The notes below the pieces were generated by a model. The model saw only the letters and a program-made list of their open reading frames with translations, was not told the origin of the DNA and made no database searches. 64,000 nt of DNA from an uncultured Bacteroidales bacterium (GTDB lineage: Bacteria > Bacteroidota > Bacteroidia > Bacteroidales > Paludibacteraceae). Below are positions 6,928 to 27,531 of this stretch, piece by piece (within the stretch, counting starts at the first letter, position 1; each line of letters opens with the position of its first letter). The position numbers and the translations under genes were made by a program. The DNA is taken from assembly GCA_902798965.1 (NCBI GenBank), contig CADBYS010000005.1:23640-87639 (forward strand). The letters run 5' to 3'.

Positions 6928-6970
6928 AAAGGATGTTGATTACTCAACTAAAGGATGTTGATTACTCAAC
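6928..6970. repeat. Perfect 21-nt unit repeated in tandem (period 22) across the stop codon of the 903-aa gene
   Basis: aaaggatgttgattactcaac occurs at 6928-6948 and again at 6950-6970. The second copy contains the stop codon (6962-6964) and the last two codons. Confidence 0.9.
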
Positions 6971-9673
6971 AATTTGACCCATCATGTTGTAGGTCTTGCC
7001 GTCCTTAATGATCAGCACTTGACCGTTGCGGATCACCTTCTGAACCTCGAGAACGTAGATGTCTTCAATAGCTGTCGACGGGTTCGGATCGGTACCCTCA
7101 ACTACCAACGCCTTCTTTGCCGGAACGATGATTTCGTTCTTGTCGGTCGGAATTGCAAACACAGCCATCAGCATAGATGAAGAATTACTATAAGCTCCAC
7201 TATTCGAAACAGAAGCAACGAGGTTACCAGCATAGTCGAAACTCATTGACGAAATCATGCTATAGCCACAGTCGATAGTTGCCACTTTCTCAAGTGTAAC
7301 AGTAGTGTCGGCTGCATAGGTCGGTTTGAGAACAAGAATATTCTTGTCACCATCAGGAATATAAATCAAGCCTTCCTTATCAATTACCAAGCCACCGCCA
7401 AGTGAACCATTGATAAATGATGCATCATCAGAAACATACTTATTAACGCCATCATGGCTGTAAGCCATCAACGAATATGCCGCACTATTATTGGAACCCT
7501 TTGCACGGTTTTGGCAGAGCCAAATAGCCTTATCGGTTACACCTATCGAGAAGACGCCACCTGCATTGTGCTGAAGAGCAATCTTCTTGGAGGGTGCTGT
7601 ATTCCACTGGTGAAGGATAGAGCCATCCTCCTGACCAACGTTGTAAACCATCAAGCCATTAGCATAATCGGGCATATCCTCGTCAATAGTATACAGTTTA
7701 GTTTCTGCTCCTTCGCCATGAATATAAGCGCACGGTGACGAGCCACCAACGTCAATACCATTGTTTGTCCACAGACCACTCGTGCCACGTGTTCCTTGAT
7801 AGAACTGCGAGCACTTTGTCAAATCTGCCGGATCCACGACATACACACCGGAGTGTCCCTGATCTGTATAGTCCGGCAACCAAAGCATACCAGTTGCATC
7901 AATGGAGAATTTCTGCGAGCCCCAGGTTGCTGTTTCGCCTAACAAATTCAAACCTCCATTGAGAGTGTAATCAGGATTGTAAACATACAAGCCGCCAGTA
8001 GCGCTACCGGTACGGTTGGTGTAGTAGATATAACCAAAGTAGTCGGACTCAGGAATTGCATTGATAACAGCCTGACCACGACCTGTCATGGCAGTTGCAG
8101 CATGTACACAAGCAAACTCTGCTACAGGGTTAGCCTTCAGTTCAACAGCCCAAGTAAGACCAGTGCCTTGAGGAATTTCACTCTTAGCAAGAGTTACCTC
8201 GTTAAGACCTTGTATAGGATCATCTACTGCTACTCGTCCTTGCAGAACACCATCTTTGTAGAACAACAGATTAGCCTCGTTACCAGCGATGTTTACATAG
8301 TACGAGAAGTTGTAGTCATCACCGTTAGCCACAACGTTCAAGCCATAAGCATTGATACGACGGTCAGCGGGAACAACGGGCTCAACATACTCCTCAGCGG
8401 AGATGAAGTAAACCTGTACATTATCGTTATAAACTGCGACAACACCGGTGATATCATATGTTTTCTCGGTATCAAAAGCGATATTTGCATTGAAGCTGTT
8501 ACGCAAAATGAAGGTCTGCTCACCGATGGTAGCATCCATATTCTTGTTGTCCGGGAACGAAGCAGCAGAAACGCTCACGTTTTTCAGGACAACGTACTTG
8601 TTCATATCAGCAGCTACCGGAGCAGCAGTCATCTCAACAGGAGCGGGAGCTTCGCCGGCAGTAGCTTCTACTGCAGCAACTTGCTCAGCGCTCGGCTTAA
8701 CCTCATACAAGCCACTATAGATATCAACCTTGCCTTCTACGCCGGAAAGAACATCACCGGCTGCCCATTCAGCAACATCAGGCAAATAGAGCAACATTGC
8801 GCCCGACGCATCCTTAACATAAACGTTCTTGCCGTTTACGTAAGTTACGGTTAAGTCGTTCAGCAGAACTTCATCGTTCTTAGCCATGTTGTAAACCTCA
8901 GCGCAAGTCTTCGGCATGATTCGAGCTGCATAGATGCAACCTTGGTGCCAGCCTTCACCGCCTTGGCCATCCGGACGGAAGTAAACATTGTATTTACCGG
9001 CTTCGGTAATTGTGTAGTTGTTGTCCATGCCATCGGGATACCAAGCATCAACCTCGCCGTCAATAACCTTGCGAACTTTGAACTGATCGTTAGCAGCAAA
9101 TGTTGTCTTCAGCACATACTCACCTGCAGAAGCGGCATTGGCAGCCAACTTATAACCGGTAGCCGGTGTCCAATTGTTCATCGAGCCAACGAGATAGTAC
9201 TCTACAACGGGCTCTGCGGGAGTGCCATCGGTAACATAGGTTGCATCCCAAACTACGAAACGACGAGCAGTACCACTTGATAATGTGATAGTTGTTTCGG
9301 CTGTAATGTTGGAGAGAGTCAACTCTTTAACAAAATCAGCCTCGCTACCGCTCAACGTATAGTCAGTACCACTACCAGAAATTCCGCTATCAGCGGTAAT
9401 ATCAAGCGTTTGGGCATCTTGACCGGGAATAGAAACATTCACATTACCAGCCTTACCACTCCATGCTGCAATATGGAACGTTAATTTTGTTGCGCCGGCA
9501 CCAAACGTAATGGTCATAGCACCATTAGCGCTGCTCGTACCAACCTTGATGGCAGTCTTTGTGTTGACTGTGGCATCATAAGACTTGTCACCGGACTTTG
9601 CCAATGTAGCCTCGGCTGCCATCATGCTCCCTGCAAAGAGCACTGCGGCAAAAAGAGAAAATAGTTTTTTCAT
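6962..9673 (-). CDS. Secreted 903-aa multidomain protein (protein A): N-terminal beta module, CBM-like module, two OB-like modules, Ig plus beta-propeller module, conserved C-terminal tail
   Basis: Signal peptide MKKLFSLFAAVLFAGSMMAAE with no lipobox Cys. YYLVGSMNNWTP..FKV (CBM-like). CAEVYNM..VYVKDASG..GDVLSGVEGKVDIYSGLYEV (OB-like). ESDYFGYIYYTN and FDYAGNLVASV propeller motifs. Tail TAIEDIYVLEVQKVIRNGQVLIIKDGKTYNMMGQIVE-stop. Confidence 0.85.
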   Translation of the reverse strand: MKKLFSLFAAVLFAGSMMAAEATLAKSGDKSYDATVNTKTAIKVGTSSANGAMTITFGAGATKLTFHIAAWSGKAGNVNVSIPGQDAQTLDITADSGISGSGTDYTLSGSEADFVKELTLSNITAETTITLSSGTARRFVVWDATYVTDGTPAEPVVEYYLVGSMNNWTPATGYKLAANAASAGEYVLKTTFAANDQFKVRKVIDGEVDAWYPDGMDNNYTITEAGKYNVYFRPDGQGGEGWHQGCIYAARIMPKTCAEVYNMAKNDEVLLNDLTVTYVNGKNVYVKDASGAMLLYLPDVAEWAAGDVLSGVEGKVDIYSGLYEVKPSAEQVAAVEATAGEAPAPVEMTAAPVAADMNKYVVLKNVSVSAASFPDNKNMDATIGEQTFILRNSFNANIAFDTEKTYDITGVVAVYNDNVQVYFISAEEYVEPVVPADRRINAYGLNVVANGDDYNFSYYVNIAGNEANLLFYKDGVLQGRVAVDDPIQGLNEVTLAKSEIPQGTGLTWAVELKANPVAEFACVHAATAMTGRGQAVINAIPESDYFGYIYYTNRTGSATGGLYVYNPDYTLNGGLNLLGETATWGSQKFSIDATGMLWLPDYTDQGHSGVYVVDPADLTKCSQFYQGTRGTSGLWTNNGIDVGGSSPCAYIHGEGAETKLYTIDEDMPDYANGLMVYNVGQEDGSILHQWNTAPSKKIALQHNAGGVFSIGVTDKAIWLCQNRAKGSNNSAAYSLMAYSHDGVNKYVSDDASFINGSLGGGLVIDKEGLIYIPDGDKNILVLKPTYAADTTVTLEKVATIDCGYSMISSMSFDYAGNLVASVSNSGAYSNSSSMLMAVFAIPTDKNEIIVPAKKALVVEGTDPNPSTAIEDIYVLEVQKVIRNGQVLIIKDGKTYNMMGQIVE

Positions 9674-9735
9674 GATTTGTTTAATTATTGGTTAATAAAG
9701 TATTGAGTTTAACAATTTTTGTTAATTGTTTTCTT

Positions 9736-10143
9736 TGTTCACAGATCAACTCGCTAATTGGCGTTTGACTTCGTTCAAGAAATCTCGAGCGGGCTGCCCG
9801 ATGGTCTTTGCCTCATCCGCAGAGATCTCCGCAATACAGTTGTAATCAGCCTTCTTGCGCAATTGCTCCATTCTATTCAGCAAGATACCATATTGCTTAT
9901 TATCTTACCGGTTAAAACAAACTCTTTACCAAACACCGCTAACATCCCCTCATGAGTCTTCGCGCTAATTTCGTTTGCTACGAGCAATGCGTGTGTAGCG
10001 TGGAAACATGCATAATAATACCTGTTACATGCCGCATCATAGTGCCCCATAGCGACCAACTCGTCCGCCAAGCCCAACATCTGTTCTGCTTTGGCAAGGT
10101 GATGAGCTATCATCTCACGTCTATCTTGATCAGAAAGTTTCAT
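9736..10143 (-). pseudogene. HEPN-domain toxin gene interrupted by a frameshift (HEPN/MNT pair)
   Basis: The frame from 10143 gives 88 aa (..AMGHYDAACNRYYYACFHATHALL..GKEFVLTGKIISNMVSC-stop at 9877). A second reading frame then reads (D)NKQYGILLNRMEQLRKKADYNCIAEISADEAKTIGQPARDFLNEVKRQLAS-stop at 9736-9738, the expected HEPN C-terminal half with the R(x4-6)H-like region. The shift lies within about 9880-9905. Confidence 0.8.
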
Positions 10144-10457
10144 TGCAGTCGCACAGCATCTTGTTGAACATTATGGTAGAACGGCGTGAAGCTGTTCTGT
10201 TTCCACTCTTTCTGCGTGTACATAATCGGATTGATGGACTGACTTAACTTCCAACCAAGTTCCGTAAACGGATATGAGATATGCGCATAATCGTCAGGAG
10301 TAATGGAGTCCTTAGGCAGCAAGACCAGCAGATCCCAATCAGAATCCGGGCGATTGTCGCCCCGAGCGCGCGAACCGTACAAATACAGTTGCGCACCCTC
10401 AGGAATGAGCTCTTTGCCCATTTGCTGAATGCGATATTGTACCTCCTGATTACTCAT
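10140..10457 (-). CDS. Minimal nucleotidyltransferase (MNT) antitoxin of a HEPN/MNT module
   Basis: 105 aa with the Pol-beta superfamily motif LYLYGSRARGDNRPDSDWDLLVLL (GSx10DxD). A 4-nt ATGA overlap joins it to the downstream HEPN frame. Confidence 0.88.
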   Translation of the reverse strand: MSNQEVQYRIQQMGKELIPEGAQLYLYGSRARGDNRPDSDWDLLVLLPKDSITPDDYAHISYPFTELGWKLSQSINPIMYTQKEWKQNSFTPFYHNVQQDAVRLQ

Positions 10458-10475
10458 ATTTCACCATTCACGCTA

Positions 10476-10507
10476 CAAAGTTACAAAAAATTTTTGATAT
10501 TTGCAAA
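10476..10507 (-). promoter_or_regulatory. Promoter of the MNT-HEPN operon, probably reading through into protein A
   Basis: Reverse complement of 10476-10483 is TAACTTTG. Reverse complement of 10504-10507 is TTTG. The spacer is 20 nt. I see no TAnnTTTG box in the 62-nt gap before the protein A start codon. Confidence 0.6.
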
Positions 10508-10758
10508 TTTTTTGGGCACAAAATTGCGAAAAAGTGCAAAATTGTTGAAAAACGACGAAAACGGCAAGTATAGTCAACAAGAATGGGCTTGATAGGTCAA
10601 AAATTATCCAAAAAATCTGTACGGATTCGACGGATCTGACGGATTACATTGTATCTTTTTTACGAACACGGAAAGACACGAAAAGGCACGGAAAAGGCTT
10701 ATAAAGAAGGCACGGAAGGAGGGGAAAAAAGGGGCTAAAAATCGGGCATAGAAAGGGT

Positions 10759-10890
10759 ATAGGCACAAAGAATTGGTAATCAGATAGATAAATGCATGAG
10801 GTTCCTATAAGGTTCCTATAAGCTTTCTATAAGGTTTATGGTTCCCCACATGGGGGATAGTTGGAGGGAAGGCGGGCGGGCTGATCAGAG
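10759..10890 (+). repeat. Dispersed ~135-bp intergenic repeat, copy 1 (partner at 38782-38916)
   Basis: Shared core: ataggcacaa..ggtaatcagatagatRaatgcatgaggttcctataaggttYctataagctttctataagSttTatggtt..gggaaggcgg(c)gggc. About 85% identity by eye, same orientation. Confidence 0.85.
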
Positions 10891-10906
10891 GTCTTGATAG
10901 GAACAA

Positions 10907-10961
10907 TCACCTACTAATCACCTACTAATAACCTACTAACCACCTACTAATTACCTACAAT
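10907..10961 (+). repeat. Five tandem 11-bp units (tcacctactaa consensus)
   Basis: tcacctactaa / tcacctactaa / taacctactaa / ccacctactaa / ttacctacaat, read directly at 10907-10961. Confidence 0.9.
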
Positions 10962-11000
10962 GACCAGGACTGAATAATTTGCTGACATGCGGGATAGCAC

Positions 11001-11033
11001 AAAAAAGGCGGTGCGTCACAAAAACGCACCGCC
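11001..11033 (-). terminator. Rho-independent terminator after protein B
   Basis: ggcggtgcgt (11007-11016) pairs with acgcaccgcc (11024-11033), a 10-bp stem with a 7-nt loop. A6 at 11001-11006 gives U6 after the stem on the minus strand. Confidence 0.8.
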
Positions 11034-11043
11034 AAAACTATTA

Positions 11044-11124: not shown

Positions 11125-12504
11125 TTATTTGAGTTCTGCGCCGAGCATGTTGTACTCGATGCCATCGCGGAGGATAAGAACCTGACCGTTGCGGATGATC
11201 TTGGTAACCTTAACCTGCTCGATGTTCTCAACTGCTGTAGCCTGATCGGATGCCAAGTCATAACTAACGCTGGCTATTCCGATTTGGTTGTCTTGAGAGC
11301 TGAATGAGATCTTAACAGCGTTGGTTCCGGCGGGAAGGCCGACTTTCTCGATCTCAAAATCGTCGGATGTCAGAGCCGGATCAAAATCAGCATAGTTCTC
11401 ACCGCCATCGGCAGAATACTGAAGTGTAATGGTTTGCGCCTTTGCACCCCACTGCTTGCAAATAAAGCGAACAGCCGTAAAGGAGTTGTTGGCAGCATTA
11501 AGTTTCAGCTCAACATCACCACCCTTCGTTACAGGAACATCGGTGATGGTTCCCGATTGCTTATTTGCCGAAGCAAAAACTACATCAACATCTGCGTCCG
11601 AAATGGTATGCTCGGAATAAGAAGATGTCCAAGACGAGAAATCTTCACTTTGCGAGAAATCAATCGTGTGGTGATATGCGCGCGAAGGAGCATTCACCTT
11701 GATATGAACGGTTACCTCTACCGACTTGTTGTCAGCAGCCGACTGGATTGTGAGGGTTTGTGTAAAGTCGCCCACTTCATCGGTACCGGCAGAGATAGTA
11801 ATGGCATCGCCGCTATTCTCGATGCTACCGGTAGCGCTAAACGGAGCTGTCAAAGCAGAATAGGTAACAGCACCTGTCAAGTTTTCAAAGCTAACTGCAA
11901 CCTGAGCGTCATCCACATCAGCGCCTTGTTCTACAGTACCGAAGTCGATGGATGCGGGATTAGCACTAATAGCCGGAGCTGTAGAAGGCTCGCCGGCATA
12001 TATTACGTCGATTTGATACAAGCAAATATTTTTCTTTGTCGCGCTGGCAAAAGCCAAATTCACTACCAAATCAGCAGACAATGTAACACCCTCCTCAGAA
12101 CTTGCATTAAAGATAAGCGTAGTTTTAGTACTACCTGAAACGCTGCTGGTCGTAGCCGAGAAACTGGTAGAACCACTCGTTACCGTTACTGTGGCTGTGC
12201 TGCTTGAACTACACGCAACTTTTACTTGTTTTACAGTCTTTCCGCTGAAAGAGGATGATGTCCAAGTCATCGAAGTTGCGGTTTTCTTGCTACTACCGAT
12301 TTGGTAGCACTTATCACCATCGTAAGTTTGAATTGAATTACCTTCACAAACTTTCGTTACCGTCCAAGTAGCACCATCTGTTGCACTGAAAGATGTTGTA
12401 GTCTCTTTAGCATCATTGGGGATGTCCATGGTTGATGTCACATCGGCAGCAAACATGCCACCTGCCAAAAGCACAGCAGCGAGAATAGAAAAGATTTTTT
12501 TCAT
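11125..12504 (-). CDS. Secreted 459-aa protein (protein B): two Ser/Thr-rich beta modules flanking an Ig-like domain, conserved C-terminal tail
   Basis: Signal peptide MKKIFSILAAVLLAGGMFAAD. Tail TAVENIEQVKVTKIIRNGQVLILRDGIEYNMLGAELK-stop. No enzyme motif recognised. Confidence 0.8.
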   Translation of the reverse strand: MKKIFSILAAVLLAGGMFAADVTSTMDIPNDAKETTTSFSATDGATWTVTKVCEGNSIQTYDGDKCYQIGSSKKTATSMTWTSSSFSGKTVKQVKVACSSSSTATVTVTSGSTSFSATTSSVSGSTKTTLIFNASSEEGVTLSADLVVNLAFASATKKNICLYQIDVIYAGEPSTAPAISANPASIDFGTVEQGADVDDAQVAVSFENLTGAVTYSALTAPFSATGSIENSGDAITISAGTDEVGDFTQTLTIQSAADNKSVEVTVHIKVNAPSRAYHHTIDFSQSEDFSSWTSSYSEHTISDADVDVVFASANKQSGTITDVPVTKGGDVELKLNAANNSFTAVRFICKQWGAKAQTITLQYSADGGENYADFDPALTSDDFEIEKVGLPAGTNAVKISFSSQDNQIGIASVSYDLASDQATAVENIEQVKVTKIIRNGQVLILRDGIEYNMLGAELK

Positions 12505-12567: not shown

Positions 12568-13809
12568 TTACTTAACTTCTGCGCCGAGCATGTTGTACTC
12601 AATGCCATCGCGGAGGATGATAACCTGACCGTTGCGAATAAGCTTGGTAACGGGAGCAGCCACGGCAGCATTATCGACAGCGGATGGAACTGCCGAGTAG
12701 GTCAGTTCAGCCCACGTCCAGTTGGCGGTGGTAGGAACGAGCTCCCACTGGCTGTCGCGCGAGAAGAAATCCCACTTGCCGGTGATCGTGCCGGAAACAA
12801 AACCTTCGATCTCCCACTCAGCCGGAACCTCGACACCGGACTTGCTGAAATAAATCTCCAGGTCTTTGTTGTCGGAGGTCTGCTTGTCGATATATATACC
12901 TTTCTTTTGTTGCGAGGAGTTCAGATAGAAACCTGTGATCTTGGCATTGACAAACGTAACGGTTACATCGGTAGTGCCTGCGGGCAGGCTGTCGGCGATC
13001 AGTTCCTCGATAGAGGCGTAGTCGTGCTGCGGTTCAACGGGCGATGTTGCCGGTTCGACGATCACGCAGGTGCAACCTGCTGCGAACTCAGGAGTGGTGT
13101 TGTACTTGGTGAGTTTGCCGGTTACCTTAACGAGGTCGCCTACCTTCGGGGCATTGATCTCGGAATCAATAGTACATTTATATGCTTCGAGAATCTTGCC
13201 GCCATCCACTGCATCCGCCATCCAGAAACTCATGTTATGATATTGCTCGCTATAGGCGTAGGCGATCTCGGTAACATAGCCTTGCACCTGATAGGTAGCG
13301 CCGTTGTTGTACTCCACATTGTTGCCGGAAACGCTCAGGGCAGCGGTGCGCGCCTCGGCACAGGTCATGGTAAGGATTGAATCGTTACCGGGTTGCGGGT
13401 CGATGGTCGTAGAATCCGAGCCTGGAGTAGTACCACCTTCGCCGAGAGTAACTTTGATTTCCGTCAGACGCGCCTGTGATGGCAGATCTGCAATAGAATA
13501 CGATGTTGCGTTAACCGTAACCTCTGAATCCAAGCCGCCTGTTTTGCCACCGGTTGTGGTGAAGTTAATCGTTGTGATCGTAGCAGTAGCCGTGATAGAC
13601 ATAGCTCCGTGAGCATAGCAACGCAGGGATTCATCCGCACAATAGCCTTTGCTATACGTAAAAGTTACACCATCTTTGGTGGCCGAAACCTGACTGCCGG
13701 TATTAGCTGTACCTTGACCGGAAAAATCGTCTTTGGTAAAAGTTACCTCCGTAGCCAACAGACTACCTGCAAAAAGCACGGCAGCGAAAAGGGAAAAGAT
13801 TTTTTTCAT
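12568..13809 (-). CDS. Secreted 413-aa protein (protein C): N-terminal beta module, two OB-fold-like modules, conserved C-terminal tail
   Basis: The ORF track extends to 14001 across the promoter. The real start is MKKIFSLFAAVLFAGSLLA (ATG 13807-13809). YQVQGYVTEIAYAYSEQYHNMSFWMAD..VGDLVKVTGKLTKYNTTPEF (OB-like). Tail SAVDNAAVAAPVTKLIRNGQVIILRDGIEYNMLGAEVK-stop. Confidence 0.8.
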   Translation of the reverse strand: MKKIFSLFAAVLFAGSLLATEVTFTKDDFSGQGTANTGSQVSATKDGVTFTYSKGYCADESLRCYAHGAMSITATATITTINFTTTGGKTGGLDSEVTVNATSYSIADLPSQARLTEIKVTLGEGGTTPGSDSTTIDPQPGNDSILTMTCAEARTAALSVSGNNVEYNNGATYQVQGYVTEIAYAYSEQYHNMSFWMADAVDGGKILEAYKCTIDSEINAPKVGDLVKVTGKLTKYNTTPEFAAGCTCVIVEPATSPVEPQHDYASIEELIADSLPAGTTDVTVTFVNAKITGFYLNSSQQKKGIYIDKQTSDNKDLEIYFSKSGVEVPAEWEIEGFVSGTITGKWDFFSRDSQWELVPTTANWTWAELTYSAVPSAVDNAAVAAPVTKLIRNGQVIILRDGIEYNMLGAEVK

Positions 13810-13876
13810 GAACTGAAAAAATTTTAAGTTAGTTAATGATTGTTTCAGGTTTATACGAATTGTTCGAAAACCATTG

Positions 13877-13908
13877 CAAAGGTAGTAAAATATTTTGAAA
13901 TTTGCAAA
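13877..13908 (-). promoter_or_regulatory. Promoter of the protein C - protein B operon
   Basis: Reverse complement of 13877-13884 is TACCTTTG. Reverse complement of 13905-13908 is TTTG. The spacer is 20 nt. The 63-nt C-B gap has no promoter box. Confidence 0.65.
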
Positions 13909-13972
13909 TATTTCACGAGCGATGGTCGGAAAAGTACAAAATTGTTTTGGGAATGCAAAGTTTTGGTTACAG

Positions 13973-14002
13973 AAAACGTGGCGTGCCTTGCGACACGCCA
14001 CG
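13973..14002 (-). terminator. Rho-independent terminator ending the protein D transcript
   Basis: cgtggcgtg (13977-13985) pairs with cacgccacg (13994-14002), a perfect 9-bp stem. A4 at 13973-13976 gives a U tract on the minus strand. Confidence 0.75.
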
Positions 14003-14335: not shown

Positions 14336-16312
14336 CTACTTCATTTCGGAGCCGAGGAGGTTGTACTCGGTGCCGTTGCGGAGGATAAGAACCTGACCGT
14401 TGCGGATGAACTTAACGGCTTGAGTGTCAACATTGACGTTATCAACAGCACTCACTTTTTTCCAGAAGTAAACGTTAGCAACGGCAAACGCGTTACCTTC
14501 GAAGCTTGCACCTTCCGGAGTCTGATAGTTCTCCAATACGAAGCACTTCAAGTTAGTGAAGTCGTATCCACCAGCCCAATCAGCCACAGCGATGTCGAAG
14601 CTGTTCCAACCCTCAGAAAGGTCAAGAACCTGACCGTCCTTGTAATTGCCACCGGCAACAGCCTCAGCGGTGAACTTAATCTTGGCAGCAGCGGGAGCCC
14701 ACATGTCAACGTGAATATTCTCATAAGCGCTGAAGTCGTGAGGATCATCGGTATGAGCGGGATCTATGATGCACTCCCAGGACATACTTTTCCATGCAGC
14801 AATAATCGTTCCGTCAATATCGAGAATGTCATAAGCACCAGCCCATCCGGAGATACCGAAGTTAGCATTGTTGGTCGCATAGTGGTTGCAATAGATTGCC
14901 ATCACGTCAGCCTCAGGCTGAGTCGGAGCAGCGGGAGCGGTTTCCGGAGCGGTAGGCAGAGGGGTTTCATCCTCAAGAACGAATGCATAACGCGAAGCAG
15001 CCATGACGCGGCAGTTGCTGGTCTCCTTAGCGATGGGGAAGACATACAATCTCTCCGAAGATGCAGAAACGATGTAGAGGTTATCTGCTGCATCGAAAGC
15101 TACACCATCAATATTAGTTCCTAACTGCGGAGTCTCGCAAAGTTTGGAAAGAGTAGGAATACCAGCTTCATCGTACACAACAGATAATACAATAACCCGT
15201 TTACCTGAACCGATAGCCAACATGCTACCATCAATACTTACAGCCATTGCGCCACGTTGTGTAGTGCTACTCTCAGACAAAAGGTTCATATCAGGAGTAA
15301 TGTTATAATCCAGTTTTCCTTTTTTTGTCCAGTGAGCAGCAGCTGTGTAATCATCAAACTGGCCACGATATTGTACAACCCAGAAACCATTACGCTTATC
15401 TGAACGAATGGTAATGTGGCTATTGGCAAGTCCATTCTCCATCGTCTCATATGACTTCAGAGCCGAATCAACCGGAATCGTTGACAAATCATATGAATTA
15501 AACGAACCTGTACCAACACCTACGCCCTCAAGGGTATACAGTTTGCCGTCCTTAGCCTCAATGGCATCAACGGCTTCATTTGCAGCAAGAACCTGAACGA
15601 AACGATTCTGCGGATTAGCGGGATCCATTCTATATACACCCTTTGTGCTATCGTCAAGCGAGCAAACATATACGTATCCACTCTCATCAATTGCCAAGCG
15701 GCGGAAAGCTACTGTAGATGTTGAGTCACCACCGATACCTCCATCATAGCCAATAAGCGCTTCTTGCTGCCCATTGACAAAATTCATCTGTGTGTCATAG
15801 ATATAAATACCGCGTGTTTGGTTTGCTGTAGTTTCCGAACCTGCATCATTGTCAGCGTTACCTATCGTAGCTTCACTTACATAAACTCGTCCGAAATACT
15901 CACTCTCGAAACTATTGTCAACCAAGACGTCACGAGGCATATAATACTTATAGCGGACATCAGAACTGGTAGTAAGGTCCGCAAATGTGGTAGCAGCACC
16001 GTAAGCGTGGATGCCCCAGGTGTACGTACCCGGTTCGAGGTCTTCCTCGGGGATAGTGATCGTAGTCTGGTGAGCACCTGCGGTGAGCAGCGATGCATCA
16101 TTAGGAGTAACAAGCGATACGAGGTCGCCTGCCTCATCAAAGAACTCAATCTCGATGCTGGTGGCAGCGGTGTTCAGAACGAACTCGATAGCCATAGTGC
16201 CATCATCGTTGAGTGTGGATTTCAATCCGGATGCCATGACGTTCACGCCATCCAGTGCCATAGCGCTCGATGCGATGAGCGCTGCAGCTACAAAAGCGAA
16301 AATCTTTTTCAT
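14336..16312 (-). CDS. Secreted 658-aa protein (protein D): Ig plus beta-propeller module, Pro-rich linker, CBM-like jelly-roll, conserved C-terminal tail
   Basis: Signal peptide MKKIFAFVAAALIASSAMALD. ESEYFGRVYVSEA and FDAADNLYIVSASSERLYVFPIAKE propeller motifs. ADVMAIYCNHYATN..IHVDMW..NVYFWK (CBM-like). Tail SAVDNVNVDTQAVKFIRNGQVLILRNGTEYNLLGSEMK-stop. Confidence 0.82.
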   Translation of the reverse strand: MKKIFAFVAAALIASSAMALDGVNVMASGLKSTLNDDGTMAIEFVLNTAATSIEIEFFDEAGDLVSLVTPNDASLLTAGAHQTTITIPEEDLEPGTYTWGIHAYGAATTFADLTTSSDVRYKYYMPRDVLVDNSFESEYFGRVYVSEATIGNADNDAGSETTANQTRGIYIYDTQMNFVNGQQEALIGYDGGIGGDSTSTVAFRRLAIDESGYVYVCSLDDSTKGVYRMDPANPQNRFVQVLAANEAVDAIEAKDGKLYTLEGVGVGTGSFNSYDLSTIPVDSALKSYETMENGLANSHITIRSDKRNGFWVVQYRGQFDDYTAAAHWTKKGKLDYNITPDMNLLSESSTTQRGAMAVSIDGSMLAIGSGKRVIVLSVVYDEAGIPTLSKLCETPQLGTNIDGVAFDAADNLYIVSASSERLYVFPIAKETSNCRVMAASRYAFVLEDETPLPTAPETAPAAPTQPEADVMAIYCNHYATNNANFGISGWAGAYDILDIDGTIIAAWKSMSWECIIDPAHTDDPHDFSAYENIHVDMWAPAAAKIKFTAEAVAGGNYKDGQVLDLSEGWNSFDIAVADWAGGYDFTNLKCFVLENYQTPEGASFEGNAFAVANVYFWKKVSAVDNVNVDTQAVKFIRNGQVLILRNGTEYNLLGSEMK

Positions 16313-20446: not shown

Positions 20447-23400
20447 TTATAAGGTTACTTGCAAGCCAAAACTGTACTGGCGTGTGTAGGGGTAGATACG
20501 TCCCCAACCCATTCCACCGCCTGAACCGGCAGCACTACCCGTTTCGGGGTCGATAGGCAGGTTGCCCAGGTGATCGAACTCACATACATTCTCCAAGCTG
20601 CAGTAGATACGTGCTTTCTGGAAATGTGCCTTTTGCAGAATGTTCTTAGGCAGCGAGTAACCGACGGTTATGTTCTTGAGTCGCAGGTACGACAAGTCGA
20701 GCAAATAACGCGTCTGGGTGAGGAAGTTGAACGATGCAGCGCTGTACTGACCGGGTTGGTTGAGCTCGGTGAGGCGCGGATACCAGGCGTTGGTGTTGGT
20801 AGGAGTCCAGTAGTCAGTCTGGTGGGCATAATACGTACCCTCCGAGAAGTTCCATCCGGGTATCATCATCGTACCGGTAGCCCAGTAGTCGCGTTTGCCT
20901 ACGCCCTGGAAGAAGATATTGAGATCCACACCGTACCAGTCGGCACCAATACGGAAGTTGTACTCGAATCGCGGTGTGGTGTTACCTATACGACGCCAGT
21001 CGCCCGGGTTGGCAGCAGTCTTGTCGCCCCAAGTGATCTGACCATCGCCGTCAAGATCCACGTACTTCACGTCGCCCGGGCCGTATTTGTACTTGTAGCC
21101 CTGGTTCTCGAAGTAGGCTTGCGAAGCGATACCATCTTTCATCGTGCCGTCGGCATTGAAGTCCGACTCCTGGAACAGGCGGTCGGTGGTGAAGCCCCAG
21201 ATCTCGCCTACGATCTTTCCCTCGTAGTTCGAGCCGTCGAGAACCGACAGTGTGGAGCGCGGGTGCTTGGTGATGATAGCCACAGCGTCGGACAAGCCGG
21301 CTGTGAGGTTAAGGCGCAGACCGTTGCTGAACTTATGGTGGTAATCGAGTTGGAGCTCGAAACCGTTGGTAGTCATCTGGGCTGCATTCTCGTAAGGAGC
21401 GGAAGCGCCGTAGGTGGAAGGAGTCTCGGCGCCGCCGGCGATCATTCCGTCGTTGATGCGGCGATACCAATCGAAGGTCAAGCCCAGATCGTCGTTAAAG
21501 AAGCGGAAATCGCAACCTACGTCGTAGGTCTTGATTGTTTCCCAAGTAAAGCCGTTGGCGAGGGCTGTAGGCAGCGAGAAGGTGATCTCGTCCACCTCGT
21601 TGACAATCCAGCCGGAGTTACCGGAGGACATTATGGCGCGGAACATGTTGGCACCTACGTCCTGGTTACCGATCGAACCGTAAGAAGCACGGAGCTTGGC
21701 AAACGACCACCAGGGTTTGAGCGCTTCCCAGAAGTTCTCTTCCGAAGCCACCCAACCTATTGAGCCGGAGGGGAAGAATCCCCAAAGCTTATCTGTCGGG
21801 AAACGGCTGGAGCCATCCACACGGCCGTTGAGCTCGATCAGGTAACGATCCTTGTACGAGTAGTTGGCGCGAGCAAAGAATCCCATCAGTGCCCAGCTGC
21901 TATGTGAACCATAGATGAACGTATCGCCGGTAGCGAGGCTGATCTCGGGTTTCGTCTGGTCGAGCAAGTCACGCTTCTCGGCATTGACGTACTTGTAGTC
22001 ATCATATTCGATGTTGTAACCGCCGAACACGCTGAACTTATGTGCATCGTTCCAGGTGTGCTGGTAACGGAGCACGGCGTTGCCGCTGTGGTGCTGGGTG
22101 CGGTAGTTATACGAGTCGATCTTGTTGCGCGAGGTGGCAGCCCAGTTGTCGGTAAGTGCCAATGTACCTGTCCAGAAGTCCCAGCCGCCAACCGTACCAC
22201 CGCGCTGCACGTAATCGCGCGAGGTGAGGTTGAACGCATAATCCACATCGAGGGTGAAGCCCGGGAGGAAAGTGACAGTAGCACCTATAGCGGCACGCGT
22301 ATAGTCGCGTTGGTCGGTATTCAGGTTTGCCGCTGCCGTTTCGGTGATGGAGTTATGGAAGGGCTTACCCTGGTACGTACCGTACGGCATAATTGCCGGC
22401 CAACGGTAGAGGTAGTACAGCGCGTCGTAGGAAGCCGAGTTGAAGTTGAAGGGCTCAGCCAGGTTCGTGCGGGTGTACATCATTTTGGCGCGTACCTTGA
22501 GCCAGTCGAAGACCTGGGTCTCGAGGTTGGTGTTAACAGAATAACGCTTGTAGCTGTCGCGGTTGACTTTTACCACGCCATTCTGATCGGCATAACCGAG
22601 GCCGATATAGTAGTTCGTCTTGCCGGCAGTGCCGCTGACGTTCAGGTTGTGCTGGTGGGAGAAGCTGTAGTCGTCGACGAACATCTTCGCAGCGTTCCAC
22701 GAGCGGTAGAAGTACGTATCGCCGGCAATGATATCGAAGTCACGGCCGAGCACCATCTCGTCGGAGAGTTCCATATTGCCGTAGGTCTGCTCCCACTGGC
22801 GCATCATATCGATGGCTGCTGCATCCCACACGAGTCCGCATCCTCCCTTGAACATTGTTGTTCCCGGTACACGGCGGTTACGTGCTTCGAGAGCCATCTC
22901 TGCACCGACGTACGACTTGGCTACCTGGGGCAGTACGGTAGGTGCAGCCCAGGAGAAGTTGTTGTTGTACGTAACGTTGAACTTGCCGCTCTCGCCGGCA
23001 CCGTTCTTCGTAGTGATGAGGATGACACCGAAGGCGGCACGTGTACCGTAGATAGAAGCCGAAGCGGCATCCTTGAGCACACTGATGGCGGATATATCCT
23101 CGGCGTTGATGGCAGAGATATCGCTCATCTCCACTCCATCGACCAGGATGAGAGGCACTGCATCGCCTGTCAGCGAACCCGAGAATCCACGGATATGGAA
23201 CTCAGGCGCTTCGCCCAGACGACCGCTGGTGTTCGTAATGGTCAGACCCGGCGTAGCACCTTGCAGACTGTTACCGACATTCGTTATAGGACGGCCATCG
23301 AGTTGATCCTCAACACTGACCGTACCTACGGCGCCTGTGAGGTTTGCCCTGCGCTGCGTGCCGTAGCCTACGACTACAACCTCTTCCAGTGCCTTGGTGT

Positions 23401-23683
23401 CCTCAACAAGTTGCACATTGACGGTTGAACGGTTCTCCACCTTCACCTTGTGGGTGCGGTAGCCGATATAGCTGAACACGAGCACGGCATTGCCGTCGGC
23501 GCTCAGGGTGTAGCGGCCTTCGAAGTCCGTGATGGTACCGGAGGTTGTGCCATCCACCATCACCGACACACCGATCATAGGTTCACCTTGTGCATCGGTG
23601 ACCAGACCGCTCACTTCCACTGCCCGGAGCGTAGCCGAACTCAGCAACGCTACTATGAGCAGGAACAGATAGGATTGTTTCAT
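20447..23683 (-). CDS. SusC/RagA-family TonB-dependent outer-membrane transporter
   Basis: 1078 aa: signal peptide, carboxypeptidase-regulatory-like domain (VSGLVTDAQGEPMIGVSVMVDGTTSGTITDFEGRYTL), plug (VVVVGYGTQRRANLTGAV) and a 22-strand barrel ending ..YSFGLQVTL. No N-terminal STN/anti-sigma signalling domain. Confidence 0.96.
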   Translation of the reverse strand: MKQSYLFLLIVALLSSATLRAVEVSGLVTDAQGEPMIGVSVMVDGTTSGTITDFEGRYTLSADGNAVLVFSYIGYRTHKVKVENRSTVNVQLVEDTKALEEVVVVGYGTQRRANLTGAVGTVSVEDQLDGRPITNVGNSLQGATPGLTITNTSGRLGEAPEFHIRGFSGSLTGDAVPLILVDGVEMSDISAINAEDISAISVLKDAASASIYGTRAAFGVILITTKNGAGESGKFNVTYNNNFSWAAPTVLPQVAKSYVGAEMALEARNRRVPGTTMFKGGCGLVWDAAAIDMMRQWEQTYGNMELSDEMVLGRDFDIIAGDTYFYRSWNAAKMFVDDYSFSHQHNLNVSGTAGKTNYYIGLGYADQNGVVKVNRDSYKRYSVNTNLETQVFDWLKVRAKMMYTRTNLAEPFNFNSASYDALYYLYRWPAIMPYGTYQGKPFHNSITETAAANLNTDQRDYTRAAIGATVTFLPGFTLDVDYAFNLTSRDYVQRGGTVGGWDFWTGTLALTDNWAATSRNKIDSYNYRTQHHSGNAVLRYQHTWNDAHKFSVFGGYNIEYDDYKYVNAEKRDLLDQTKPEISLATGDTFIYGSHSSWALMGFFARANYSYKDRYLIELNGRVDGSSRFPTDKLWGFFPSGSIGWVASEENFWEALKPWWSFAKLRASYGSIGNQDVGANMFRAIMSSGNSGWIVNEVDEITFSLPTALANGFTWETIKTYDVGCDFRFFNDDLGLTFDWYRRINDGMIAGGAETPSTYGASAPYENAAQMTTNGFELQLDYHHKFSNGLRLNLTAGLSDAVAIITKHPRSTLSVLDGSNYEGKIVGEIWGFTTDRLFQESDFNADGTMKDGIASQAYFENQGYKYKYGPGDVKYVDLDGDGQITWGDKTAANPGDWRRIGNTTPRFEYNFRIGADWYGVDLNIFFQGVGKRDYWATGTMMIPGWNFSEGTYYAHQTDYWTPTNTNAWYPRLTELNQPGQYSAASFNFLTQTRYLLDLSYLRLKNITVGYSLPKNILQKAHFQKARIYCSLENVCEFDHLGNLPIDPETGSAAGSGGGMGWGRIYPYTRQYSFGLQVTL

Positions 23684-23724
23684 GGTTTATGTTGATTTAG
23701 TATATCTTACTTCAGATTACAAGA

Positions 23725-26700
23725 TCAATACTTTACGCCTTGTGCGTTGTAGGTATCGCCGTCGCGGTTGATAAGCAGTTGGCCATCACGGATGGATTTC
23801 GTTACTTGCGATGCGCGGTCATTACTGACGGTGGAAACAGCATCGTCGATAGGCTCGGCGGGCAGCGGCTCGCGGCGAGTGGTGAACGAGTTGTCGAGTT
23901 TCGGCATCGTGAATACCATCAGGTTGTGGTTGGTAGGCGATACGACATACAGGTTACCTGCAGCGTCGAACTCGCAAGCCATGGTCACACACGACTCGGC
24001 ATCTTCGCCGTAGTGAATGAGGTGACGCAGGGTGAGCGTAGGCACGTTCTTGGCGTTGTAGGTTACGCCATATACGGCTATGGTGCTCAGTTCGCGACCG
24101 ATAGCTACCAGATTGCCGTCGGGCGAGACAGCCATACCACCTTGCTCCGAACCGCCGATAGCGGAACCGCAGTTGTAGTCGATCTTGCCACCGGTGATAT
24201 GGATGAGCGAAGGTACGGCTTCCGACGAAGCGTAGCGGTACTGACTCATCCACCAGCCACCACGACCGTCGGGATAAAGCTGACCCGAGCCATTCTGCAT
24301 CTTACCATACTGGTTGTCGTTATATACGATGGACGAGGGCACTTGGTTCCAGGGCAGGGTTGCCGAACCGAGTTTGTACTCGTTGATGCTCGTAGTGATA
24401 GGCGACGAGGCGATATTATGATCCATAGTGTACAGAGTTTTGGCGCTGCCTACACCCGTGAGATAACAGCTCATCACAGGGTTGGTCACCACATCGGCAC
24501 CGTTCTTGATCACGCCGGTTGTCTTGTTACGTTTGCCGGTGAACACCTCGGTAAAGGCTGCTGCGGGGTCAGCAGGGTTCATGATATATACGCCACTGGA
24601 GGTAGCCGTAGCGGAAGGAACAAACACATCGCCATCGGGGGCAACCGACAGACGCGACAGTGCCATCTGATAGCTCTTGCCCTGGTTGTGCGCACCCCAG
24701 GTTACACTGCCTGAATAGGCGTTTGTGCCTTGCGAAGTGATGTCCGTCCAATCGGACGAGAGGACATACACACCTTGTTTGGTGGTACGCATATCGGCAT
24801 TGCCACCCTCGGCATCGGCAACGTAGATACGACCAAAGAACGGGGAGTTGGGTGTCTTATCCACTGCAACACCCATCGGCGTAGCGAAGCTGAAGATAGG
24901 ATCATCGTCGCTGAGTTGTGCAGGGTAGCTGACAGGCTCAGCGGTAACGGTCAGTTCATATACATCGAAATCGGCGGTGTTGAAGGGATTGTCGATCTCA
25001 TGACCACCCATAGCCAACGCACCCAGTTCGGTGGAGCCTAACTCGTTGCCTTCCTTCGAAATCTTCAGGGTGGCAGTCTGAGCGTCGGTGTTCAAGCGGA
25101 AGGTGAACTTACCGTTGTTGAACTGGAGTTCGGAGGCGAAGATGTTCGCCACTTCGGTGATGCTTGATACGAAGTGCTGAATACCCAGACCTTCGGCAAC
25201 TATATACACGTGTATTACATATTTATCTACGTACGCGAACGCGTGTGCACGCGAGGCGTTGCCGCTCATGGCTTGGAACTGCGAGATAGCAGTCTGTGCA
25301 CCCTCGTCGATATCCCAGAGGCGGAAACCTACCTTGTCGTTTTGCACTTCGGGCTTAACCATCAAGTCGTGACCGGCATAACGGAGGAAGCAAGGGATCA
25401 TGCCATTGCTCTCGATGTTCACGTCCTTGTTCGGCATCAAGGTCACGCGGCTTTCGGCATTCAGACCGAGCAGCGTAGCGGATTGTACATCGCCAACAGT
25501 AGGATGATCCTCATCGTAGTTGAGGGAGAGCAGAGCGTTGGCGGTAGTTGTCCAGAGCGTGGCTTTCCAGTGCGGAGCGCTGGCAGCCAAGGTGCCGGTT
25601 ACGTTGCCATCGACCGTGCGTTCAGCCATCAGTTCGACGGAAGTGAACTCGGGATCGAACATATACACTTTCCAACTATTCTCTGCAGCCACACTTGCCA
25701 GGAGGAAGTTATCGGCAGCAAACGCGATATCCGAGAATACTACACCGGGGAGTGCGGGGAGCGTATCGATGGGGTTCATCTGCAGGTCGCGGCGGGTGAG
25801 TGTGCCGTCAGAGGCCAAGGCATATACATAACCTTCGCGGTATAGTACGCGCTTGAACGATTCGGTAGAAGCATGCTCCTCGCCTACCTTGGTGAAACCA
25901 TAATCCGGCAAGAGCAGGGTGCCAAGGTCTTGCTCGGGCTCATCGAAGTCGGGCAGGTCGATGCGGGTATAGCGGAGGAAGAACTTCACACCGGCTATAT
26001 CCTCGGCAGCCACGGTGACCGTTTCGGTCTTGCCAATGTAACCGCCTTTATCGGCGCGAACAGTATAGGTGCCCGGCTCCAGGTCGTAGAAGGCAAAGAT
26101 ACCGTTGTACCAATCATCAGTGATGACCGTATCGAGCGGATTGCCGTCGGCATCGCCGAGGATGACCGTAGCGCCGTTGAGCGGTAGCCACTGGTCGTCG
26201 GTATTGTTGAAATAGTAGAACTTAGGCTGCTCCAGATCGTCGATGGTCTGGTTGCTGCTCTTTACGAAACCGCTGATGCATGCCGTAGCCGGCAGCTGGC
26301 GGTCGAACCACTTGTGGAAGTACTGGAACATGCGCAGGGCTTCCAGGTGGCAATAGTCGTTGTTCATCAAGCGGTGGGTTTCCGGTGCATAGTCATGGAA
26401 ACTACCCTCGGAGAGGTGACCGGGGACAGTGAGGGGGCGTAACACACCCAGACCGGCGAGCGGGTCGGTAGGACTGTCGCCGTAGAACGTTATATCGCCA
26501 CGGATGTACGGCGTAGCACCGCTGCCCCACACGGTAAGCGGGTTCTTGATCTGCACACTGCCCGCCATGGCAGCCATCAAGTTCGAGGGAGCTACTGTAG
26601 GAGCGCCATCCTCGCCGTGGTAAAGCATCAACAGGTAATTGGTGCGCAGATTATGGGCGTTGGAGTGAATACTGAGGAAGTGATCCGCACCAAAGGCGTT

Positions 26701-27531
26701 AGCCTCCTCTGCGATCTCCGACAAGTAGCGGTCGCCGCCCGCCATGATAGCGTTGTACTCCGCCGAGCCGACTTGTACGTTCGGATAATAATCGATATCG
26801 CGTGCGCCGGAGGTATTCTCGGTACGTGAGATCATCACCGTAGCACCGGCAGCCTGGAGCATGTCGTACAAGTACAGCGCCTTGACCAAGTTCGACTTCG
26901 ACTCCCAGTAACCGGCGGGGTTCGTCCACTGTTCGGGTACGGGGATCGTCCAACAACTACGGTCGTTAGCATCGTATCCGCCATGACCCGGGTTGAGGTA
27001 GATCTTGATACCAGCGAGGCCAACTGTTCCGGTCTGCTGTGCTCGGAGGGCAGTGTGAGCGGCGATGCGTGCGCGGTTACGCTGCACCTCTGCCTGGCGG
27101 CGTTCAACGACTTTGTTCTCATACCATATTGCCTCAAAGTCGGTCATCTCGCGATGCATCTTACCGTCGCGGCTTGTGCAGAAATACTCGGCACGGTACT
27201 CGGGGACTTCGTTCGGACCATAATACTCGAGTTTACCGGCAACCATCTCGTTGTCCATCCAGGTGGGTTCGATCATCCAACCCAGACGGCGAACATTCTT
27301 GCCGTTGAGGTCGCAAACATAGGCGCCCTGATAGGCTACATAGTAAGCGATATGCGTGCGGTCGGGGCTGAGACTTACCCAGAAGTAACTGGCATCAGCT
27401 CCGTTGGGGGTGAGGACGGTTTCCTGACCAACCATCTCCACTACGATCTTACAATCGCGCACAAAAACGTTTTGTGCTGCAAGGCTCAGGCTAAACGCCA
27501 TGGCCAAAACAAAGAGAATAGATTTTCTCAT
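23725..27531 (-). CDS. Secreted 1268-aa fusion: PD40-like N-terminus, N-acetylmuramoyl-L-alanine amidase (amidase_3), CarboxypepD_reg-like domain, Ig plus beta-propeller module, conserved C-terminal tail
   Basis: Signal peptide MRKSILFVLAMAFSLSLAAQ. Amidase_3 blocks IKIYLNPGHGGYDANDRS, WESKSNL..GATVMISRT and ADHFLSIHSNAH. GATVILGDADGNPL..YDLEPGTYTVRADKGGY. NSPFFGRIYVADA and FDAAGNLYVVSPTNHNLMVFTMPK. Tail DAVSTVSNDRASQVTKSIRDGQLLINRDGDTYNAQGVKY-stop. Confidence 0.88.
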   Translation of the reverse strand: MRKSILFVLAMAFSLSLAAQNVFVRDCKIVVEMVGQETVLTPNGADASYFWVSLSPDRTHIAYYVAYQGAYVCDLNGKNVRRLGWMIEPTWMDNEMVAGKLEYYGPNEVPEYRAEYFCTSRDGKMHREMTDFEAIWYENKVVERRQAEVQRNRARIAAHTALRAQQTGTVGLAGIKIYLNPGHGGYDANDRSCWTIPVPEQWTNPAGYWESKSNLVKALYLYDMLQAAGATVMISRTENTSGARDIDYYPNVQVGSAEYNAIMAGGDRYLSEIAEEANAFGADHFLSIHSNAHNLRTNYLLMLYHGEDGAPTVAPSNLMAAMAGSVQIKNPLTVWGSGATPYIRGDITFYGDSPTDPLAGLGVLRPLTVPGHLSEGSFHDYAPETHRLMNNDYCHLEALRMFQYFHKWFDRQLPATACISGFVKSSNQTIDDLEQPKFYYFNNTDDQWLPLNGATVILGDADGNPLDTVITDDWYNGIFAFYDLEPGTYTVRADKGGYIGKTETVTVAAEDIAGVKFFLRYTRIDLPDFDEPEQDLGTLLLPDYGFTKVGEEHASTESFKRVLYREGYVYALASDGTLTRRDLQMNPIDTLPALPGVVFSDIAFAADNFLLASVAAENSWKVYMFDPEFTSVELMAERTVDGNVTGTLAASAPHWKATLWTTTANALLSLNYDEDHPTVGDVQSATLLGLNAESRVTLMPNKDVNIESNGMIPCFLRYAGHDLMVKPEVQNDKVGFRLWDIDEGAQTAISQFQAMSGNASRAHAFAYVDKYVIHVYIVAEGLGIQHFVSSITEVANIFASELQFNNGKFTFRLNTDAQTATLKISKEGNELGSTELGALAMGGHEIDNPFNTADFDVYELTVTAEPVSYPAQLSDDDPIFSFATPMGVAVDKTPNSPFFGRIYVADAEGGNADMRTTKQGVYVLSSDWTDITSQGTNAYSGSVTWGAHNQGKSYQMALSRLSVAPDGDVFVPSATATSSGVYIMNPADPAAAFTEVFTGKRNKTTGVIKNGADVVTNPVMSCYLTGVGSAKTLYTMDHNIASSPITTSINEYKLGSATLPWNQVPSSIVYNDNQYGKMQNGSGQLYPDGRGGWWMSQYRYASSEAVPSLIHITGGKIDYNCGSAIGGSEQGGMAVSPDGNLVAIGRELSTIAVYGVTYNAKNVPTLTLRHLIHYGEDAESCVTMACEFDAAGNLYVVSPTNHNLMVFTMPKLDNSFTTRREPLPAEPIDDAVSTVSNDRASQVTKSIRDGQLLINRDGDTYNAQGVKY

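Follow-up and report, generated by a model that had tools for sequence, protein, structure and literature searches.

Cargo of type IX secretion systems (T9SS) is normally predicted with the models TIGR04183, PF18962, and TIGR04131. The canonical type A C-terminal domain (CTD; TIGR04183 Por_Secre_tail / PF18962), known from RgpB of Porphyromonas gingivalis and RemZ of Flavobacterium johnsoniae, is a seven-stranded β-sandwich of 70-100 aa, while T9SS also takes other C-terminal endings as signals, namely the type B CTD (TIGR04131) and the type C ChiA-like signal (NF033708), some of them with dedicated carrier proteins; PorP-like proteins serve the type B CTDs. Short CTDs are known from Prevotella intermedia (Veith et al., 2013; Ye et al., 2025, Open Biol 15:240335, PMC11969387), which the literature on them describes as the one species with reports of short as well as long CTDs. 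According to Ye et al., the short CTD comprises 40-55 aa, forms one three-stranded sheet behind a PT/GI linker, and carries the motifs B, D, and E in colinear order with 1-6 aa between B and D (PMC11969387). Here, we describe a C-terminal tail of another kind, which ends six secreted proteins encoded in a 64,000-nucleotide stretch (hereafter the window) from an uncultured Bacteroidales bacterium of the family Paludibacteraceae (assembly GCA_902798965.1, contig CADBYS010000005.1, positions 23,640 to 87,639). Probably, the tail is a T9SS sorting signal of very small size that no model has covered so far.

The closest relative of the tail is the Prevotella-type short CTD. Like this domain, the tail is located at the extreme C-terminus of Sec-exported proteins, follows a P-T-[G/A]-[I/V] linker, is predicted to form a single three-stranded sheet, and escapes the generic CTD models. 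However, the P. intermedia domain runs from motif B (YxxxG) through D (GxY-I) to a basic motif E, whereas in the tail an I-R-[ND]-G-Q hairpin leads and YNxxG comes last; in addition, the tail lacks GxY, has an invariant Lys before strand 1, and its HMM gives no match to short CTDs (0/95, see below). Thus, in length, fold, and linker the tail comes close to the short-CTD class, but its motif order and the lack of motif D place it outside that class, to which the ending of another window protein, GHL10, does belong. With the canonical type A CTD the tail has in common its position, the kinds of cargo, and a motif-B-like Y-[ND]-x-x-G-x-x-V element, and the two are interchangeable in orthologs of GHL10 and of the amidase fusion described below; in contrast, the tail is composed of a core of about 26 aa with three strands, has no PNP or GxY signature, and does not match the type A models (E>10). 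The type B and type C signals resemble the tail in being alternative C-terminal endings, and show that T9SS accepts several unrelated-looking tails; however, these domains are longer, the tail matches neither model, and no PorP/SprF-like gene accompanies the tail genes. We found no description of the tail in the literature, including the text of Ye et al. as compared without its alignment figures. In sum, the finding is out of the ordinary: the tails form a large family of minimal C-terminal endings, covered by no model, and behave as alternative T9SS signals in an abundant uncultured lineage of gut and rumen.

A Common Tail on Six Secreted Proteins

A sequence-only reading of the window had reported one short C-terminal tail on six proteins, namely A, B, C, D, an amidase fusion, and the distant protein F (Table 1). 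The hidden Markov model (HMM) constructed from 50 tails of other organisms, with the window sequences left out, recovered exactly these six among 1,143 six-frame stop-to-stop segments of the window, in each case aligned up to the stop codon; the best non-tail segment reached E=2.8. The common ending of A, B, C, D, and the amidase fusion follows the pattern [ST]A[IV][ED][ND]-x8-K-x-IR[ND]GQ[VL][LI]I-x-[RK][DN]G-x-x-YN-x-x-G-x-x-x-x-stop. All six proteins have an SPI-type signal peptide and no lipobox Cys, as the same reading had held. Its further statement that the bodies of these proteins are otherwise unrelated holds for B and C, which have only the signal peptide and the tail in common; it does not hold for A, D, and the amidase fusion, which contain a common propeller-like domain of 360-400 aa with 21-28% identity (residues 537-899, 44-429, and 811-1265, respectively). 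This domain is C-terminal in A and in the amidase fusion and N-terminal in D, away from the tail of the latter.

In B, C, and D, the DNA that encodes the tail (11125-11263, 12568-12706, and 14336-14474) is far more similar than the remainder of these genes and includes long identical runs such as ATCCGCAACGGTCAGGTT and GAGTACAAC, which suggests that the tail cassette was recently duplicated or underwent gene conversion. The open reading frame (ORF) of protein C reaches 65 codons further upstream, to a GTG at position 14001 (12568-14001); a start at the ATG of MKKIFSLF at 13806 is plausible, as it opens a signal-peptide-like segment. The exact 412-aa sequence of protein C is absent from the protein collection searched, where it is therefore probably called with another start. 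The N-terminal ~110 aa of proteins A and C are weakly similar to NF052644, "T9SS-dependent surface endonuclease" (E-values of 6e-4 and 0.7, respectively), and A and C may be surface nucleases or binding proteins.

Size, Consensus, and Distribution of the Tail Family

The profile of the six window tails was searched against 1.84 billion representative proteins and matched 6,751 protein clusters (50% identity) at E<=1e-3, with 129 at E<=1e-10. The tail is thus not confined to one paralog family, a possibility that the sequence-only reading had raised against itself, but is carried by thousands of Sec-exported proteins with unrelated bodies. In 146 of the 149 top matches the alignment ends at most 3 residues from the C-terminus; 75 of the 149 start with a signal-peptide-like N-terminus, many of the remaining ones being gene fragments shorter than 200 aa, and a possible lipobox occurs in only one. 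The tail-bearing bodies are varied and include InlB-B/List-Bact repeats, BspA-type leucine-rich repeats (LRR), FlgD_ig, CHB_HEX_C, Big_2, amidase, and other domains, which are typical surface-protein and T9SS-cargo types.

Column frequencies were calculated from 52 diverse tails. The linker reads P44 T86 A76 [V53/I36] [E57/D34] N84 and is separated by 8-9 variable residues from the tail core, the first half of which reads K100 [VIL] I71 R88 [N55/D42] G100 Q96 [VL] L75 I96 and the second half x R90 D88 G100 K71 T65 Y86 N96 x x G100 x E71 V53 [K51/R19]. More divergent members also exist, e.g., KVLIDGKLYILLGEKIFTVTGQQIK. Scanning one genome per species with a narrow search pattern confirmed at least 481 tail sites; the best 80 of these, which were examined further, come almost all from metagenome-assembled genomes (MAGs) labelled "Paludibacteraceae bacterium" or "uncultured Bacteroidales", were obtained from rumen, caecum, and faeces, and occur at several sites per genome.

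Three of the examined loci (L059, L068, and L074) belong to bins labelled Erysipelotrichaceae, Acutalibacteraceae, and Segatella copri; the same 630-aa gene adjoins the tail gene in each of them, and because they have this neighbor in common the three labels apparently reflect one mis-binned contig. The top-scoring match in the protein search, P0020 (774 aa), is an unrelated repeat protein with fifteen tandem 51-aa repeats (..ICAGDSIIVNGTTYNATGIYTDTLVAANGCDSVLTIDLTVNPVA..), each of which aligns weakly to the tail profile at positions 15-40, and is a caveat for scans with the tail HMM. In the 229-aa metagenomic protein P0095, a tail ending in FNMMGQEV is followed in the same reading frame by the D/E half of a long CTD (..GVYFYSLIVNNQTVKTNKLVVSK). 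We rejected this protein as an evolutionary intermediate, since its N-terminus is that of an unrelated cytoplasmic-looking protein; it is probably an assembly chimera joined at words common to the tail and motif B, a natural tail/long-CTD hybrid being the less likely alternative.

Exchange of Endings between Orthologous Proteins

The GHL10 glycoside-hydrolase-like protein of the window has a short type-A-like CTD with the motifs B, D, and E in canonical order and gives no match to the tail HMM, in line with the earlier proposal of a different, compact T9SS type-A-like ending on this protein. For GHL10 and for the amidase fusion we compared 120 listed orthologs each. The listed GHL10 orthologs are 56-98% identical, their bodies end in ..YYWRVKTR..N..D.WS, and one linker, ED[AS][VI]E[DN], is followed by any of three endings: the tail in ~65 proteins (e.g., EKWIENGQVYIMRQGTTYDMLGNTISK), a short CTD of the pattern GVYSxLGxYLG-x8-GxYI[IV]NGKKVIx in ~33, and a long CTD in ~21, six of which are flagged by PF18962. 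The listed amidase orthologs include 63 with a short CTD and 17 with a long CTD of the PF18962 type; the tail was assigned by pattern to 35 of them and by eye to a further three. At E<=1e-3 the tail HMM recognizes 62/64 and 37/37 tail-class orthologs (99/101 overall) and 0/95 short-CTD orthologs. Neighbor-joining trees built from the bodies alone require at least six changes of ending in each of the two families. The named cluster members of tail-bearing and of short-CTD GHL10 orthologs are alike Paludibacteraceae.

The same exchange is seen at a syntenic locus, L081 of GCA_017477325.1, where the genes are arranged in the order GHL10 - PD40 - amidase - Big_2 - SusC - SusD - DUF4623. There, the tail (AQKIVEDGVIYILRNGGKYNVLGHKIQ) stands on GHL10, a PF18962 CTD on the amidase, and a short CTD on the Big_2 protein; relative to this locus the endings in the window are swapped, with a short CTD on GHL10 and the tail on the amidase. 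The three endings thus coexist in one cell and have been exchanged between the same cargo proteins, which is what is expected of alternative signals for one export route.

Paludibacteraceae also use the Prevotella-type short CTD, GVYxxxGxYLG-x8-GxYI[IV]NGKKVIK (window 27558-27707, minus strand; L081 13654-16989), and a single genome, that of L081, has a long CTD, a short CTD, and the new tail in neighboring genes.

Signal Models, Predicted Fold, and Motif Order

Neither the whole window proteins nor their tails of 69-85 aa matched TIGR04183, PF18962, TIGR04131, or NF033708 (NCBIfam release 20) at E<=10, a limit that the HMMER filters make effectively E > about 0.1. PF18962 likewise matched 0/70 full-length members of the tail family. 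As a positive control, three long CTDs from orthologs reached 41-57 bits on TIGR04183 (cut-off 23; 1e-10 to 1e-15). The scoring with TIGR04183, PF18962, and TIGR04131 that had been suggested for the tails therefore argues that they are not ordinary type A CTDs, and the model scores also place them outside the type B (TIGR04131) and type C ChiA-like (NF033708) classes. The short CTD-like ending of the window GHL10 is similarly undetected by these models, TIGR04183 and PF18962 included. Type A CTDs present the motifs B (YxxxG), D (GxY), and E (basic, near the end) in this order on a seven-stranded Ig-like β-sandwich, whereas the tail has its motif-B-like YNxxG last and no GxY, and is modelled as a three-stranded meander; the tail does share the extreme C-terminal position on proteins with an N-terminal Sec signal peptide, and it is exchanged with bona fide CTDs on one and the same cargo.

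We modelled the tail with AlphaFold2 (AF2) from 52 tails, using a 46-aa query. A low-confidence linker (predicted local distance difference test, pLDDT, of 64-70) is followed by a three-stranded antiparallel meander with a pLDDT of ~92 over the last 26 residues and predicted strands at residues 20-25, 28-33, and 36-38. The corresponding model of the window short CTD contains the B hairpin at 20-21/27-29, strand D at 38-42, and strand E at 45-49 (mean pLDDT 84.9), and agrees with the three-stranded short CTDs published for P. intermedia (PMC11969387).

Profiles were compared by hhalign with column-shuffle nulls. In the control comparison the short and the long CTD align on motif D (L..G.YI) with a score of 25.6, reached by 0/120 shuffles. 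The tail and the long CTD align on the motif-B-like Yn.lG..v alone (score 12.7, 5/120 shuffles); on this result we rejected a reading of the tail as a long CTD's N-terminal half, from the PNP strand to motif B. A colinear alignment of the tail with the short CTD covers 7-10 columns at scores of 11-12 (21/150 and 8/120 shuffles). When the short CTD is rejoined as D/E followed by B, or duplicated in tandem, the alignment extends to 17-18 columns (I.NGq..I.--.vY..lG) and scores 15.9-16.5, a register reached by 1/150 and 2/120 column shuffles. On these sequence profiles the opposite motif order is the best-supported register, with statistics that are modest for such short profiles. The sequence-only reading had proposed exactly this, i.e., two hairpin-like elements in opposite order and a tail far shorter than the canonical CTD; the permuted register is indeed preferred over the colinear one, and a core of ~26 aa stands against 70-100 aa. 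Since the DG turn between strands two and three is tight, the B-like strand must pair with the E-like strand and not with D. The model thus describes the tail as re-ordered motifs on a predicted meander, not as a structure-preserving circular permutation.

Proposed Export Route and Alternative Explanations

We propose the following route for the tail proteins. The N-terminal SPI signal peptide would direct them through Sec to the periplasm, where the last ~26 residues (K-x-IR[ND]GQ[VL]LI-x-RDG-KT-YN-x-x-G-x-E-V-K) would fold into a three-stranded antiparallel β-meander. This mini-domain would be recognized by the Sov/SprA translocon and the PorV shuttle instead of a seven-stranded long or three-stranded short type A CTD. 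The linker P-T-A-[VI]-[ED]-N, 8-9 residues upstream of the tail core, would presumably be the PorU sortase site, with cleavage between T and A by analogy with PT|GI of P. intermedia; this would free the protein of its tail, after which its new C-terminus would be linked to a surface glycolipid or the protein released. T9SS recognition, PorV binding, the cleavage site, and surface attachment are inferred here. In support of the putative cleavage site, the linker resembles the PT/GI motif with a conserved aliphatic residue at +2, at which cleavage was mapped in P. intermedia (PMC11969387). In cryo-EM structures the conserved type A motifs specify the fold and not the contacts with SprA and PorV (PMC10994853), which makes it plausible that a different minimal fold is accepted.

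Several results weigh against a T9SS role of the tail. NCBIfam scans of the window ORFs found no porK/L/M/N, sov, porU, porV, or porP, and no T9SS core gene was detected in ~35 candidate ORFs (20 scanned singly, ~15 joined into two pseudo-proteins) from 80 related loci, which cover only short parts of the genomes concerned. The sole basis for assuming the machinery is thus the presence of canonical CTD cargo in the family, TIGR04183-positive proteins occurring in Paludibacteraceae (P0586; L081); the literature searched gave no usable statement on T9SS in Paludibacter or Paludibacteraceae. The tail reaches none of the T9SS signal models, as described above, and has no motif D (GxY), by which short and long CTDs are linked most strongly; in sequence, it resembles CTDs only weakly (best P ~4e-4 by hhalign, ~0.01-0.02 by shuffling). 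A sequence comparison with the PDB turned up no relative, its matches, e.g., designed WD40 "RNGQLL" repeats and eL19, being due to chance. With the tail model as query, Foldseek found no PDB entry below E=1, the domain being too small. The permuted order also loses the strand neighbors of the short CTD, as B pairs with E and not with D, so that binding to PorV "in the same way" is not guaranteed. Finally, published truncation work puts the essential signal in the last two strands (D/E), and the D/E-like hairpin of the tail is not at the very C-terminus.

Two candidates for T9SS components were rejected. An AraC-type regulator in the related loci has only a partial PorZ-like propeller match and is not a T9SS core gene. 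The tetratricopeptide repeat (TPR) protein encoded at 29722-31155 (plus strand) of the window scores 55-70 bits for PorE / CHU_0125, against cut-offs of 600-620, has no OmpA_C domain, and is not a PorE ortholog.

One rival explanation, which we consider unlikely, is that the tail is a diverged form of the short CTD already described for P. intermedia, of type A and with colinear B-D-E, hence neither permuted nor a new class. Tail and short CTD have in common a span of ~40-55 aa between linker and stop, a predicted three-stranded sheet, and a PT-[GA]-[IV] linker in front. Ye et al. (PMC11969387) mention a subgroup with GxN in place of GxY, and there is a small chance that the tail overlaps with this "GxN" subgroup. 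Opposed to this are the separation of families, as the genuine short CTDs of the window and L081 form a family of their own that the tail HMM does not recognize; the alignment of the short with the long CTD on motif D, for which the tail has no counterpart; the colinear alignment of tail and short CTD, which extends over just 7-10 columns and is not above shuffles; and the 37-39 aa between the predicted cleavage site and the end of the tail, below the published 43-55 aa. In favor of this explanation, and as a lead only, QVLIIR-DG-KTYNMMGQEVK may be aligned by eye with the end of the P. gingivalis RgpB CTD. A quite unlikely course of events, in our judgment, is that the tail signals for a route outside the core T9SS, through a dedicated outer-membrane partner or shuttle, or through vesicle or surface retention by β-strand augmentation, with lineages switching cargo between two parallel routes. 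Such a route would fit the absence of matches to any T9SS signal model, the lack of motif D, the near-invariant Lys placed elsewhere, before strand 1, and the very hydrophobic central strand ([VL]-L-I-[LIV]), which suggests a binding partner; specialized shuttles for different CTD classes are known (PMC12618676). However, tail and type A CTDs have been exchanged repeatedly in each family at the same linker and coexist in neighboring genes, the linker/cleavage motif is common to the tail and the short CTDs, and no conserved partner gene lies beside the tail genes in the window or the 80 loci, where the neighbors are SusC/D, DUF4623, and assorted genes.

That the tail serves as a small functional module and not as a targeting signal, for instance as an oligomerization tag or as a hairpin that binds a ligand, a glycan, or the wall, is very improbable. 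Short β-hairpin repeats with G/Y/N patterns are found in binding repeats, and the 51-aa internal repeats of P0020 weakly match part of the tail profile. However, the tail is single in each protein and almost always reaches the C-terminus (146/149), follows a low-confidence linker on bodies of unrelated function, and is replaced in orthologs by secretion signals, not by binding domains. The view of the sequence-only reading that it is a sorting tag rather than a functional domain is therefore supported, as the tail is C-terminal on unrelated bodies and takes the place of T9SS CTDs in orthologs.

Within the preferred reading of the tail as a T9SS signal, a bolder form may be put forward tentatively, at a little short of even chances: the tail would be a distinct further class of T9SS signal, a ~26-residue mini-domain with circularly permuted elements (D/E hairpin, then B), and the predominant export tag of Paludibacteraceae. 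The permuted mini-domain would plausibly have originated by duplication and truncation. If such a class exists, HMM-based secretome predictions miss most cargo in this family, and T9SS or a specialized PorV-like shuttle tolerates a re-ordered minimal signal. The current models are blind to both the tail and the short CTD, which leaves most of the secreted and surface proteome of this abundant gut and rumen family, including glycoside hydrolases, amidases, LRR adhesins, and proteins associated with polysaccharide utilization loci, annotated as hypothetical or by body domains only; an HMM of the tail would recover thousands of cargo proteins. A 26-residue re-ordered signal that is swapped with 80-residue CTDs provides a ready-made test of recognition by Sov, PorV, and PorU, with the natural swaps in two ortholog families and within one locus as built-in replacement experiments. 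If the T9SS reading is true, the engineering of Bacteroidota would also gain in the tail its shortest candidate secretion tag.

Other Features of the Window

The positions of the tail proteins, GHL10, and the genes that lie between the amidase fusion and proteins D-A are listed in Table 1. The order GHL10-amidase-SusC-SusD-DUF4623 is kept in another Paludibacteraceae genome.

Table 1. Tail proteins, the short CTD of GHL10, and intervening genes in the window (tail HMM E-values in the last column)
Feature	Position	Strand	Description	E-value
Protein A, 903 aa	6962..9673	-	SPI signal peptide, DUF5689-like region, propeller-like domain, tail	2.6e-19
Tail of A	6962..7078	-	STAIEDIYVLEVQ-KVIRNGQVLIIKDGKTYNMMGQIVE-stop; linker motif and predicted three-strand meander	
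Protein B, 459 aa	11125..12504	-	Signal peptide, unassigned body, tail	8.8e-23
Tail of B	11125..11241	-	ATAVENIEQVKVT-KIIRNGQVLILRDGIEYNMLGAELK-stop	
Protein C, 412 aa from the MKKIFSLF ATG	12568..13806	-	Signal peptide, OB-fold-like body, tail	4.5e-21
Tail of C	12568..12687	-	PSAVDNAAVAAPVT-KLIRNGQVIILRDGIEYNMLGAEVK-stop	
Protein D, 658 aa	14336..16312	-	Signal peptide, propeller-like domain at 44-429, tail	1.7e-20
Tail of D	14336..14455	-	VSAVDNVNVDTQAV-KFIRNGQVLILRNGTEYNLLGSEMK-stop	
DUF4623 lipoprotein	16596-18389	-	Between amidase fusion and proteins D-A	
SusD-like	18615-20363	-	Between amidase fusion and proteins D-A	
SusC-like	20447-23683	-	Between amidase fusion and proteins D-A	
Amidase fusion, 1268 aa	23725..27531	-	Signal peptide, Amidase_3, CarboxypepD_reg, propeller-like domain, tail	9.4e-16
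Tail of amidase fusion	23725..23844	-	DAVSTVSNDRASQVT-KSIRDGQLLINRDGDTYNAQGVKY-stop	
GHL10 glycoside-hydrolase-like protein, 654 aa	27558..29522	-	Short type-A-like CTD	no match
Short CTD of GHL10	27558..27707	-	DSIEDA..QGVYSLLGVYMG-DDVESLDS-GLYIVNGQKVMKQ-stop; motifs B, D, E in canonical order	
Protein F, 551-560 aa	61322..63004	-	Signal peptide, Ig-like repeats, degenerate tail (HMM match at the last residues)	9e-6
Degenerate tail of F	61322..61450	-	..QIRDAQ-KYMHAGQVYVYYNGSLYNTEGKRVQ-stop	

The TPR protein gene mentioned above is divergent from the GHL10 gene, and its product shows partial and weak similarity to PorE / CHU_0125-type OmpA-like proteins. Between the tail genes A and B lies a toxin-antitoxin-like pair on the minus strand, which consists of an MNT nucleotidyltransferase (10140-10457) and a HEPN protein (9877-10143); the HEPN frame is apparently split, with a second piece at 9746-9883, and may therefore be a pseudogene. 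Two tandem deoxynucleoside kinase (PF01712) paralogs, encoded at 4055-4747 and 4854-5483 on the minus strand, adjoin a tyrosine recombinase gene (3095-4030).

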